DNA of 64,000 nt from Candidatus Omnitrophota bacterium (GCA_903908245.1 CAIVRE010000017.1:133-64132); one strand, 5' to 3'; numbered from the stretch's first letter, positions 14,511-20,542 are shown. Program-made: numbers and translations. Notes: generated by a model not told the origin, from the letters alone.

Positions 14511-15260
14511 ATGCACCGTTTTTATTGCGCCGCCCTTTTACAACAACAGGAACCGCTTGTTATTGATGACCCCGATGAGGTTCATCATATAGCGCGGGTC
14601 CTTCGTTTGCGCCCTGGGGACGCAGTGGAGCTGATCAATGGCCAAGGGGCTTTGGGTGCAGCCCGGATCATTGGTATTTCAAAACAGCACATTCAAGTGG
14701 AATTATTGGAAGAGGTCCGGTCTTTTTTACCTTCCCCGGTAAAGATCATTCTGGCCTGTGCTTTACCCAAACGGTCAAAGTTCGAAGATATCATTGAAAA
14801 ATGCACACAACTCGGCGTTGATGAAATAGTCCCTCTTGTCACAAAACGTACCGAGATCGTCCCTTCCAAAGAGGCTGTCTTGCGCATGGGAATACGATTC
14901 AACAAAGTGGCTCTGAGCGCCTCCAAGCAATGCCAGCGATTATGGTTCCCGGTAGTATACCCCGCCATGGCGCTGGAGACAGCGGTGGACCTGTTCGCGA
15001 AAGAAAGCAATGCATTATATTTCCCCTGGCTTGAAGGCAAGCGAACATTATTAAAAGAGGCTTTGGACCGTCGTGAACCCCGGCCGGGAGCCGTTGTTTT
15101 CTTCATTGGGCCTGAAGGCGACTTTTCTCCGGAGGAAGCAGATTACACGATACGTAAAGGCGCTGTCCCTGTTTCATTGGGCGAGACCGTGCTGAGGGTC
15201 GAGACCGCCGCGGTCGCCGTGATATCCTATGCGCATTTTATTATTGGAGGATCGGATTGA
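14511..15260 (+). CDS. rsmE: 16S rRNA (uracil1498-N3)-methyltransferase RsmE
   Basis: 249 aa with the RsmE N-terminal PUA-like region and a C-terminal SPOUT domain (FFIGPEGDFSPEE). Confidence 0.85.
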   Translation: MHRFYCAALLQQQEPLVIDDPDEVHHIARVLRLRPGDAVELINGQGALGAARIIGISKQHIQVELLEEVRSFLPSPVKIILACALPKRSKFEDIIEKCTQLGVDEIVPLVTKRTEIVPSKEAVLRMGIRFNKVALSASKQCQRLWFPVVYPAMALETAVDLFAKESNALYFPWLEGKRTLLKEALDRREPRPGAVVFFIGPEGDFSPEEADYTIRKGAVPVSLGETVLRVETAAVAVISYAHFIIGGSD

Positions 15261-18690: not shown

Positions 18691-20542
18691 TAAACGATCG
18701 ATCACAGAGTGCTTTGGTAACAGGGATTTCCTGTGGGCCTCTTTCTTTGCCGCTATTGTGCTGATCACTTTCTCTCCGCTGTCCCATGCCGCCTACATGC
18801 TGAATTTTGATGACAACACGCATTTCTTTTATAATTCGCTGGCTCGGGACGGGAATTGGCGCAATACGCCATGGGATATATTTTTTACGCCCGATACGGC
18901 CAATAAAACGTATATCCCTTTGACGATCCTGACGTATTTCTATGAGAATACGTTCTGGGGCTCACATCCATGGATATCCCACACGATCAATTTGATGCTG
19001 CATTTTGCGGTCTGTGCCGCGGCCTTTTTCTTCGCAAGGGCTCTTCGGTTAAGCCGCCTTGCGGCTTTTACGGGCATACTTCTTTTTGCCGTACATCCGA
19101 TGCATGTCGAGCCGGTCGCCTGGGTAACCGCGCGCAAGGACCTGTTATACGCTTTCTTTTATTTATTATCACTTCTTTTTTATCTGCGTTATACCGATTC
19201 CGGGAAAGGACGGGATTATATTTTCGCGCTCCTTGCGGCCGCCCTGAGCATCCTCTCAAAACCCATGGCATTAAGCCTGCCGCTGGTATTATTCCTTTTG
19301 GACTGGCACAGATCCCGTTCTTTTACCTGGAAGCTGATCCTCGAGAAACTGCCTTTCTTTCTGACCGTCGTCCCTTTGGCCTTGATCACATATATGATGA
19401 ATGCCAGGGGAACGAATTCTTCATGGGATTATTCCCCTTTATTGTGGGTCTGGTGTGCGATGTTCTATATAAAGAAATTCTTTTTCCCGGTCGATCTTGC
19501 CGCGGTGTACAAACCCATATTCTCGATCAATATATTTAATCCGGAATATGGCTCTGCTTTTATTTTATGCCTGGTCCTGTTATTTTTCCTGTGGTTCTGG
19601 CGCAGGAACAGGCTCGTCTTATTTACAGCAGGTTTTTATACCCTTTCCCTGTTCTTTATATGGCGGTTTGATTTCTATGATCTTACCTTTGTCGCAGACC
19701 GCTTTATGTATTTACCCAGCCTCGGTTTTTGTTTTCTTTTCGGGACCATTGTTGAAAAACTCCTCGGATCAAAATATTCCCGTTGGGGGTATCCGCTGCT
19801 TTTTGCGTTCCTGATACTGTTGATGGCGATGACCCACGCAAGAACGGGTGTATGGAAAGACAGTTATTCCCTTTGGAAAGACAACCTGAAGCATTACCGG
19901 TCGCCTTTTGCCTTGAACGCATTCGGAGAATCCCTTTTGGAAAACCATTCATTCAAGGATAACAAGGAGGCTTTTATCAAAGCCTTGAGTGGTTATGTCA
20001 AAACATCCCCCGCAAAGTTCAAGGCTGTTTTCGCCGGGTCCATTGAACGCAAGGTCAACGCCGCCCGAAAACTGACGGCGATCAAGGCTTTTTACGGCGC
20101 GTTAAGGCTCAGCCCCAATGACGAAGATGCCCTGGATAATGTCGGTTTCTTTTATGTTATGGCCAAGCAATACGAACGGGCGATCCCTTTCTTTAACCGC
20201 TGCATCATTCTTTCTCGCGGCAGCAACGGGACTTATTTCTACAATCGTGGATTGTCCTACGAATATCTCGGGGATATTGAACTTGCCCTGGTCGATTATG
20301 GCCGCGTGATCGCTTTAGGGAATGACGGGGTCATCCCGGCACGGCTCAACAGGGCGCATATCATGTTCCGCAAGGGGAATTATGAAGCGGCTTTGCTGGA
20401 TATTTATCCTGTTATCCGCTCATTCCCGCAATATCCTCCTACATATGAACTTGCCATAAAGATAGCCGAGGCCAAGAAAGACAATGACCTGATCATAAAA
20501 CTGAAAAAGTTCCGGGAGTATTATAAGAAACACGCGTTTTAA
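18680..20542 (+). CDS. TMTC-like GT-C membrane protein (DUF1736-type motif) with C-terminal TPR repeats, paralog
   Basis: 620 aa. The motif FAVHPMHVEPVAWVTARKDLLYAFFYLL plus a TPR C-terminus make it a paralog of the 15257 gene. Confidence 0.7.
   Translation: MNINKRSITECFGNRDFLWASFFAAIVLITFSPLSHAAYMLNFDDNTHFFYNSLARDGNWRNTPWDIFFTPDTANKTYIPLTILTYFYENTFWGSHPWISHTINLMLHFAVCAAAFFFARALRLSRLAAFTGILLFAVHPMHVEPVAWVTARKDLLYAFFYLLSLLFYLRYTDSGKGRDYIFALLAAALSILSKPMALSLPLVLFLLDWHRSRSFTWKLILEKLPFFLTVVPLALITYMMNARGTNSSWDYSPLLWVWCAMFYIKKFFFPVDLAAVYKPIFSINIFNPEYGSAFILCLVLLFFLWFWRRNRLVLFTAGFYTLSLFFIWRFDFYDLTFVADRFMYLPSLGFCFLFGTIVEKLLGSKYSRWGYPLLFAFLILLMAMTHARTGVWKDSYSLWKDNLKHYRSPFALNAFGESLLENHSFKDNKEAFIKALSGYVKTSPAKFKAVFAGSIERKVNAARKLTAIKAFYGALRLSPNDEDALDNVGFFYVMAKQYERAIPFFNRCIILSRGSNGTYFYNRGLSYEYLGDIELALVDYGRVIALGNDGVIPARLNRAHIMFRKGNYEAALLDIYPVIRSFPQYPPTYELAIKIAEAKKDNDLIIKLKKFREYYKKHAF

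Follow-up and report, generated by a model that had tools for sequence, protein, structure and literature searches.

Gene organization of the locus

Three adjacent genes encoding polytopic membrane proteins, here called A, B and C, lie on one strand of a 64-kb stretch of DNA from a Candidatus Omnitrophota bacterium (GCA_903908245.1 CAIVRE010000017.1:133-64132; 64,000 nucleotides, referred to below as the window). Homologs of these proteins carry source names that likewise point to Candidatus Omnitrophica/Omnitrophota. A and C are paralogs that resemble the animal TMTC proteins, and B, located between them, belongs to a distinct and divergent family of GT-C glycosyltransferases. The genes are arranged as follows:

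15257–17188, forward strand: gene A, an open reading frame (ORF) of 643 amino acids (aa) for a TMTC-like GT-C protein, with a transmembrane (TM) core at about residues 1–390 and a C-terminal tetratricopeptide repeat (TPR) domain.
17185–18690, forward strand: gene B, an ORF of 500–501 aa for a divergent GT-C-like protein lacking TPRs, with 11 predicted TM helices and a small C-terminal domain.
18680–20542, forward strand: gene C, an ORF of 620 aa for a TMTC-like GT-C protein with a C-terminal TPR domain.

The coordinates and the strand confirm the layout given in an initial annotation of this DNA, which described two paralogs around a 501-aa membrane protein. Gene A starts at a TTG codon with GGAGGA 5 nt upstream, and its database copy, P0001, begins four codons later; the database copy of B, P0121, begins at the ATG at 17188. 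The overlap of stop and start codons is 1–4 nt at A/B and 11 nt at B/C. These overlaps had been singled out before and are indeed present, but they are not special, as overlaps are common across the window and comparable ones occur in recA/recX/alaS/hisD, just downstream of the trio. Since these unrelated neighbors overlap likewise, the overlap is a trait of a compact genome, not specific to the trio, and it was rejected as evidence for a complex of A, B and C. No further paralogs of A, B or C were detectable in the 64-kb window by tblastn.

A and C, two TMTC-like paralogs

A and C share 42% identity over 439 aa, restricted to the membrane part (BLASTP E 2e-73), and both carry the loop motif quoted in the initial annotation, as FAFHPMHVESVAWVTERKDVLYSFFYLL in A and FAVHPMHVEPVAWVTARKDLLYAFFYLL in C, which upholds the proposed paralogy. 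The C-terminal regions, both of which have TPR matches in Pfam and among PDB sequences, are barely alignable with each other (BLASTP E 0.026). Searches of Pfam, NCBIfam and PDB sequences with A or C as single queries gave TPR matches only. The TPR array previously noted in each paralog is thus real, and is located as follows:

16430–17185, forward strand: C-terminal TPR domain of A, with Pfam TPR matches at residues 528–615 and PDB TPR matches, predicted to be periplasmic by homology to C.
19862–20539, forward strand: TPR array of C, about 13 helices (residues 395–617), on the side of the membrane that holds the catalytic loops.

Full-length identity is 55–62% inside each ortholog group, A-type and C-type, TPR domains included. 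A neighbor-joining tree of the TM core, a phylogeny of the kind proposed at the outset, separates the A-type from the C-type proteins as two ortholog clades. A recent local duplication as the origin of A and C was rejected, given these separate clades and a mutual distance similar to the distance to other family members. The A/C family is large, with more than 2148 matches at E ≤ 1e-5.

The likeness of A and C to TMTCs, proposed initially from the loop motif, was borne out by profile comparison. Aligned with hhalign, a profile of 113 A/C-family sequences matched one of 20 authentic TMTCs with a probability of 100% and an E of 5e-64 over 595 columns, including the TPR region. A human TMTC3 N-terminal sequence was used only as a probe for fetching proteins named TMTC by their source, and all comparisons were made on the fetched database sequences. 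In BLASTP, a fish TMTC3 matched C with an E of 4e-15 and A with an E of 2e-13, at 34–35% identity over about 105 aa across the quoted motif, and a second segment of the same protein corresponds to VA(D/E)R..Y.PS.GFC in A and C. The animal TMTC1–4 (CAZy GT105, protein O-mannosyltransferases) resemble A and C over their full length, with 11 TM helices and non-cytoplasmic TPRs, and have in common with them the motifs DD; x-K/R-x-Y-x-P-L-T; Y-H-L-x-N-x-x-L-H; HPxHxE..R.(D/E); the Lys of external loop 3 (EL3); and (A)D/E-R..Y.PS.GFC. Judged by their sequences, A and C are TMTC-like enzymes. The motifs map to the following segments:

15371–15379, forward strand: W-D-D of A (D40/D41), the DD motif of EL1 with the predicted catalytic Asp, aligned to FDD of TMTCs.
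15656–15703, forward strand: TM3-EL2-TM4 motif of A, HPMHVESVAWVTERKD, aligned to HPIHTEAVTGVVGRAE of TMTCs.
16253–16282, forward strand: VADRFMYLPS of A, the EL5 Arg motif, equivalent to ‘AERV’ of TMTCs (hhalign) and a predicted phosphate contact.
18806–18814, forward strand: F-D-D of C (D44/D45), the loop-1 DD motif, from alignment conservation.
19094–19141, forward strand: TM3-EL2-TM4 motif of C, HPMHVEPVAWVTARKD, aligned to TMTCs by BLASTP and hhalign.
19691–19720, forward strand: VADRFMYLPS of C, the EL5 Arg motif, aligned to VAERVLYVPS by BLASTP and hhalign.

Conservation was scored in two alignments, the 113 A/C-family sequences and a 17-sequence TM-only set, using the residue numbers of C. 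Invariant in both are D44, H139, P140, R152, K153, D154, K194 and R341. In the TM-only set D45 and H142 never vary, and among the 113 they reach at least 90% conservation. E144 is invariant among the 113, with at least 90% conservation in the TM-only set, and D340, too, is invariant in just one of the two alignments. The acidic residue in loop 1 that had been named as a check is therefore present as a conserved DD motif, the first Asp of which is invariant. These conserved residues match the ligand-binding positions described for TMTCs and ArnT (Eisenhaber et al. 2021; PMC7801869). HPxHxE...R.D and the EL3 Lys (SKPMA), which is invariant in the A/C family, align to HPIHTEAV..GRAE and LCKEQG of TMTCs, the Asp-Lys pair of TMTC1 being D169/K219 (PMC7801869); the Asp-Lys pair and the EL5 Arg of ArnT and oligosaccharyltransferases (OSTs) are likewise kept in A and C. 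The EL5 Arg of TMTCs (‘AERV’, before TM10) is a predicted phosphate contact, and the His and Lys of SHKSYRP in EL1 are predicted to touch the donor phosphate (PMC7801869). The A/C counterpart of SHKSYRP is A-N-K/R-T-Y-I-P-L-T, in which the TMTC Lys corresponds to Lys in C and to Arg in A, and the His to Asn at a position that is variable across the family (SHK becoming A/V-N-K/R). The quoted loop motif is accordingly TMTC-like, as the initial annotation had it, but it belongs to the TM3-EL2-TM4 segment and not to the DUF1736 loop.

The AlphaFold2 (AF2) model of C, with a predicted local distance difference test score (pLDDT) of 94.2 and a predicted TM-score (pTM) of 0.91, has 11 TM helices by DSSP, followed by the TPRs after TM11; the earlier estimate of about 10 helices recognized the polytopic character but falls short of this count. 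The conserved loops and the TPR array lie on one side of the model, and short Arg/Lys-rich loops on the other, predicted cytoplasmic side. This modeled topology fits that of TMTCs and of the bacterial glycosyltransferase TfpW, with the TPRs predicted to be non-cytoplasmic. A Foldseek search of the PDB with the C model is dominated by TPR proteins, and yeast Stt3 (8age_A) is the sole non-TPR match; no TMTC entry turned up in this search.

B, a divergent GT-C family

The third polytopic membrane protein of the initial annotation is an all-helical membrane protein, as described, but is itself a GT-C homolog of A and C. The B sequence has no Pfam, NCBIfam or PDB-sequence match, and the HPxHxE and RKD motifs are absent from it. 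Compared as profiles, the B family matches the A/C family with an hhalign probability of 97.3% and an E of 1.8e-11 over the first 282 columns, and the TMTCs with 73.6% and an E of 2.9e-5. LFRPLL of B aligns with YIPLT of the A/C family, and LLHL with LLHL. The AF2 model of B (pLDDT 90.3, pTM 0.92) was compared with the PDB by Foldseek, the kind of structural comparison that the initial annotation had proposed for telling GT-C enzymes from an unrelated transporter family. The top 23 matches are all GT-C (Stt3, AglB, ArnT, PglB, ALG9/ALG12, DPY19, AftA), at a probability of 1.0 and TM-scores of 0.4–0.49. Four segments are distinguished:

17263–17274, forward strand: K-H-D-Q of B with the loop-1 Asp (D28, P0121 numbering), aligned with the A/C DD motif; Asp in 75/76 family members.
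17572–17598, forward strand: NLPMVVWHN of B, EL2 segment, residues 130–138, in which the Pro of a sub-clade replaces Glu/Asp.
18211–18231, forward strand: GRVNSRG of B with the near-invariant R343 (75/76), a putative and unaligned counterpart of the EL5 Arg.
18496–18687, forward strand: C-terminal non-TM domain of B, about 65 residues with DFSF, CPGNY and PKY..C motifs, predicted to be periplasmic, at the position of the TPR array.

Among 76 diverse family members, conservation is 75/76 for D28, 73/76 for R67, 76/76 for both P68 and H96, 72/76 for E183 and 75/76 for R343; R275 is also near-invariant. The EL2 position facing Glu144 of A/C is Glu or Asp in 68 of the 76, and Pro only in the window B and four close relatives. 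The Pro of this C-adjacent sub-clade may mark altered metal or acceptor binding, or a loss of activity. The solved GT-Cs (ArnT, PglB/Stt3/AglB, PMT, ALG, DPY19) share their fold with B by Foldseek, and Stt3 with C, together with the catalytic Asp of EL1. Identity to them is 10–14%, with no match at the level of hidden Markov models (HMMs) and no MIR or OST-type periplasmic domain, and B differs further by having Tyr and Glu for the EL2/EL3 Asp-Lys pair and a different, small C-terminal domain.

At E ≤ 1e-30, an exhaustive profile search gave at least 554 representatives of the B family, and relaxing the threshold to E ≤ 1e-3 brought the number to 2479, most of them full length; a family of only 19 members, as returned by a word-index search, was rejected on these numbers. 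Ten sampled members lack Pfam domains, save one with a C-terminal F5/8 type C domain. The source names found for the family are all ‘hypothetical protein’, and the sole organism named is Omnitrophica WOR_2. B thus represents a distinct, divergent GT-C family without a curated model, homologous to A and C.

The cassette in related genomes

The position of the cassette between rsmE and recA is kept in seven related genomes, and its content varies:

A-B-C: the window and locus L001.
A, pilin-like gene, B, C: locus L012.
B-A-C: locus L011.
B-C: loci L002 and L013.
B-C-B-B: locus L004.

The bracketing of B by A and C, as initially described, is true of the window but is one of several gene orders. 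What is constant across the seven syntenic genomes is B directly followed by an A/C-family gene, and the C paralog always adjoins B. The L001 cassette has extra genes, namely two B-like genes, an Acyl_transf_3 gene and a PMT_2 gene. In L012 (Cal1bin1), a 148-aa pilin-like gene (N_methyl and a weak Pilin_GH match) lies at 7413–7859, with the A-type gene on one side and B on the other, which hints at a connection of the cassette with pilins. L011 (DYOU01000022.1) is titled Candidatus Elulimicrobium sp. (Patescibacteria group, NCBI taxonomy) and is syntenic with the Omnitrophota loci gene for gene across the secretin, ATPase, platform, pilins, rsmE, B, A and C; the bin may be mislabeled.

Other Omnitrophota have tandem arrays of two or three TPR-bearing A/C-family paralogs of 580–665 aa (L007, 3115–8983; L009, 5154–8899; L008, 7001–11690) in unrelated neighborhoods with no pilin genes nearby, one with a GH26-like gene between the paralogs. 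These arrays suggest an expansion of the A/C family across the phylum. Distant B-family genes lie beside Glyco_trans_2_3 genes of glycosyltransferase family 2 (GT2) in L006 (147–10557) and L005 (9001–11796), the former also with PMT_2, PEGA-domain, CheX and PilZ genes. These distant homologs are not near genes of a type II secretion system (T2SS), and their setting suggests that some B-family members belong to polysaccharide-type loci.

Genes flanking the cassette

A full cluster resembling a type IV pilus (T4P) or T2SS apparatus occupies 4358–14508, upstream of rsmE and the cassette, on one strand and with minimal spacers. It comprises a PilM-like gene (536 aa), two unannotated ORFs, a secretin, an MshEN-domain ATPase, a T2SSF platform and six N_methyl pilin-like genes, and is itself preceded by a 715-aa TPR protein and ExbB/ExbD. 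Two tandem pilin-like genes (11698–12150 and about 12341–12796) have near-identical products, with the same N-terminal methylation motif and few differing body positions, and both proteins end in a Ser/Thr-rich tail, ...NKTGSSTV.AVSTLPY. The probable major pilin seems to have been duplicated recently. Downstream of the cassette are recA, recX, alaS and his genes. The flanking features are:

11698–14508, forward strand: six pilin-like (N_methyl) genes, given as context and candidate acceptors only.
14511–15260, forward strand: rsmE-like 16S rRNA methyltransferase gene, which borders the cassette upstream in relatives too and whose stop overlaps with the start of A.
20547–20575, forward strand: TGGACA-17-TATAAT, the best sigma-70-like site of the region, in the spacer between C and recA.

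The sigma-70-like site matches at 11/12 positions, is the strongest of a 15-kb region and sits in the 64-bp spacer before recA; it is the probable downstream boundary of the transcription unit. No terminator-like hairpin was found between C and recA.

Proposed function of A, B and C

A, B and C are probably all periplasm-facing glycosyltransferases that use polyprenyl-phosphate sugars, an interpretation that we hold with reasonable, though not high, confidence. Membership in the GT-C families points to the polyprenyl-phosphate-linked donor. For A and C, whose mechanism may be modeled on ArnT, PMT and TMTC, an 11-TM catalytic core with conserved loops facing the periplasm would be followed by a periplasmic TPR array. 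The polyprenyl-phosphate-sugar would be held by the EL5 Arg (VADRF) and the EL1 Lys/Arg (N-K/R-T-Y-I-P), and the acceptor hydroxyl would be activated by the EL1 Asp-Asp, the EL2 His/Glu cluster and the Asp-Lys pair (RKD...SKPMA). The TPR array would pick and present the acceptor, the likeliest acceptors being Ser/Thr of proteins in the periplasm or at the surface. Because the TM cores are conserved and the TPRs are dissimilar between A and C yet kept in each ortholog group, different acceptors are the simplest reading, and A and C probably serve different protein acceptors. The different substrate specificities suggested in the initial annotation thereby gain indirect support.

B would share the 11-TM core, without TPRs, and would keep the EL1 Asp and the near-invariant Arg, with Tyr141 and Glu183 replacing the Asp-Lys pair. 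On these differences, B would most likely catalyze a different transfer, either onto another acceptor or by adding to the same glycan in a second step. A glycan context is apparent in relatives, in the extra B-like GT-C, Acyl_transf_3 and PMT_2 genes, in the GT2 genes beside distant B homologs and in the one F5/8 type C domain.

Several points weigh against this interpretation. The bacterial members of the A/C and B families are biochemically uncharacterized; the initial description of bacterial TMTC-like proteins as essentially uncharacterized holds broadly, but TfpW, a bacterial GT-C pilin glycosyltransferase with TPRs, has been studied. The presence of a TPR domain is no proof that the acceptor is a protein. 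The label DUF1736 given to A and C did not survive, as PF08409 (DUF1736) has no match in either at E ≤ 0.1 and occurs in 0 of 120 A/C homologs among the matches listed, whereas nearly all fetched TMTCs carry it. In TMTCs, the DUF1736 loop connects TM7 and TM8, is detected at E < 1e-30 in all human members and contains FDNPA and DW motifs (PMC7801869). EL4 of A/C aligns to this loop but is shorter and lacks FDNPA and DW, which explains the absent PF08409 match; the donor-binding loop of A and C would therefore be unlike that of TMTCs. PMT_2 (PF13231) scores 22.8 bits in C, under the gathering threshold of 26.1 bits, has no match in A or B, and occurs in 2 of 120 A/C homologs among the matches listed. 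The structural link of C to solved GT-Cs is a single modest match, and profile-to-sequence searches of the PDB with the B family and the TM-only A/C alignment gave no significant match to a solved GT-C. A GT2 gene for donor synthesis (GtrB/ArnC/Ppm1-type) was not found among the scanned ORFs of the window. The Pro at EL2 adds that B may be catalytically altered or inactive.

Alternative explanations

One alternative is pilin glycosylation of the TfpW kind, in which the cassette would modify the pilin-like proteins of the upstream T4P/T2SS-like cluster. TfpW of Pseudomonas aeruginosa is a GT-C pilin D-arabinofuranosyltransferase/oligosaccharyltransferase of 646 aa that modifies PilA and is encoded beside pilA, with 11 predicted TM helices, an essential DDx in periplasmic loop 1, Y-x6-P in loop 4 and periplasmic TPRs (bioRxiv 10.1101/2020.04.19.049825). 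A and C share its size and architecture, including an invariant Y-x6-P (YLKKFFVP in A, YIKKFFFP in C) and proximity to pilin genes, a likeness of architecture drawn from the published description. The cassette lies downstream of the PilM-like, secretin, ATPase, platform and six pilin-like genes and has their orientation, a position kept in seven relatives; a pilin-like gene stands within the L012 cassette, and the two major pilin-like proteins have Ser/Thr-rich tails. However, tfpW directly follows pilA, whereas the housekeeping rsmE always intervenes between the pilins and the cassette, and Pfam scans of the window turned up neither DprE1/DprE2-type genes for D-arabinofuranose nor other dedicated sugar-donor genes. 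The syntenic genomes are one lineage, so that the pilin linkage may be inherited gene order, and the A/C-family arrays of other Omnitrophota are not close to pilin genes, nor are the distant B homologs close to T2SS genes. We regard this explanation as unlikely.

A second alternative, to which we also assign a low probability, is that the acceptors are not proteins but lipid A or the core of lipopolysaccharide (LPS), a polysaccharide of the periplasm or capsule, or some other glycolipid of the envelope, with the TPRs serving complex assembly or glycan binding. Precedents for such acceptors exist in ArnT, the Emb/Aft enzymes and the O-antigen-modifying GT-Cs. Among solved structures, ArnT is also the homolog closest to the TMTC core (PMC7801869), and it is one of the top Foldseek matches of B. 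The Acyl_transf_3 genes, typical of glycan O-acetylation, and the further GT-C genes in related cassettes, together with the Glyco_trans_2_3 synthase-type GT2, PEGA and PilZ genes beside distant B homologs, would fit this explanation, and copy number and gene order vary as they do in surface-glycan diversification loci. Against it, the characterized GT-Cs with a TPR array (TMTC1–4, TfpW) all modify proteins; conservation of the TPRs in each ortholog group, with divergence between A and C, is the pattern expected of specific protein clients; and the window has no adjacent genes for the export of LPS or polysaccharide.

It is more doubtful that the products form, in line with the hetero-oligomeric enzyme suggested in the initial annotation, an obligate hetero-oligomer of A, B and C, or of B and C, similar to Pmt1-Pmt2, with B as an altered or inactive subunit relying on the TPR domain of its neighbor. 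The constant placement of B directly before an A/C-family gene, the overlap of start and stop codons at A/B and B/C and the loss, in the C-adjacent B sub-clade, of an EL2 acidic residue found in 68 of 76 relatives could all be read in this way, and PMTs are known to function as dimers (PMC7759382). Stoichiometry and order nevertheless vary (A-B-C, B-A-C, B-C, B-C-B-B), distant B homologs exist without an adjoining GT-C with TPRs, and the codon overlap extends to unrelated genes, as described above.

We give still less credence to a more specific proposal, that the rsmE-recA cassette is a glycosylation module dedicated to the upstream T4P/T2SS-like apparatus, in which A and C would each O-glycosylate different pilins or secreted proteins through their distinct TPRs and B would extend the glycan or act as a partner of C. 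If true, it would provide the first tractable bacterial model of TMTC-type protein O-glycosylation, along with a new GT-C family.

Finally, the idea that these are transporters or other non-enzymatic polytopic membrane proteins, the outcome by which the initial annotation would have been refuted, is itself effectively refuted: B lacks a curated family match and some transporters (MFS and others) appear low in its Foldseek list, but at probabilities of 0.1–0.6 and TM-scores of 0.10–0.17, far from those of the GT-C matches, and both the GT-C loop-1 Asp with other catalytic-site motifs and the TMTC match of the A/C profile speak against it.

Relation to known systems and significance

To our knowledge, TMTC-type O-mannosylation is known only from animals, and we know of no solved TMTC structure. 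TMTCs use Dol-P-Man in the endoplasmic reticulum and have cadherin and protocadherin clients; A and C are bacterial, would act in the periplasm with a bacterial polyprenyl-phosphate donor, and have no clients of the cadherin type. Uncharacterized full-length prokaryotic homologs of TMTCs, such as AMJ42_05695 of Deltaproteobacteria bacterium DG_8, were noted through their similarity to human TMTC3 (Eisenhaber et al. 2021). By their description, they are of the same class as A and C, with a sugar-transferase core followed by TPRs; A and C differ in coming from Omnitrophota and in sharing their cassette with a member of another GT-C family, one that lacks TPRs. As such homologs had been noted and TfpW is known, A and C are not new in kind. 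They are new members of the prokaryotic TMTC homologs, to which B adds a GT-C family lacking a curated model. We found no literature on proteins of the A, B or C type in Omnitrophota.

Bacterial homologs that are abundant and compact and keep five of six TMTC motif sets could serve as structural or biochemical surrogates for TMTCs, and the A/C family is relevant to the origin of the TMTC architecture in prokaryotes. Given the diversity of GT-C enzymes, the B family is useful for annotation and unsurprising in kind; a curated model for it would improve the annotation of Omnitrophota and related genomes.

Other GT-C-like genes in the window

Outside the cassette, two adjacent genes of the PMT_2 family (PF13231) at 58153–59502 and 59505–60737 encode GT-C proteins of 449 and 410 aa. 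At 33247–34947, a 566-aa ORF without a Pfam match looks like another putative GT-C: its TM1 precedes YFYDEGMY, which has a D-E motif, and after this come many TM helices and, at the C-terminus, a soluble domain. The 64-kb window thus holds five or six GT-C-like genes, which, together with the tandem A/C arrays, suggests a heavy investment in periplasmic or surface glycosylation in a little-known phylum.

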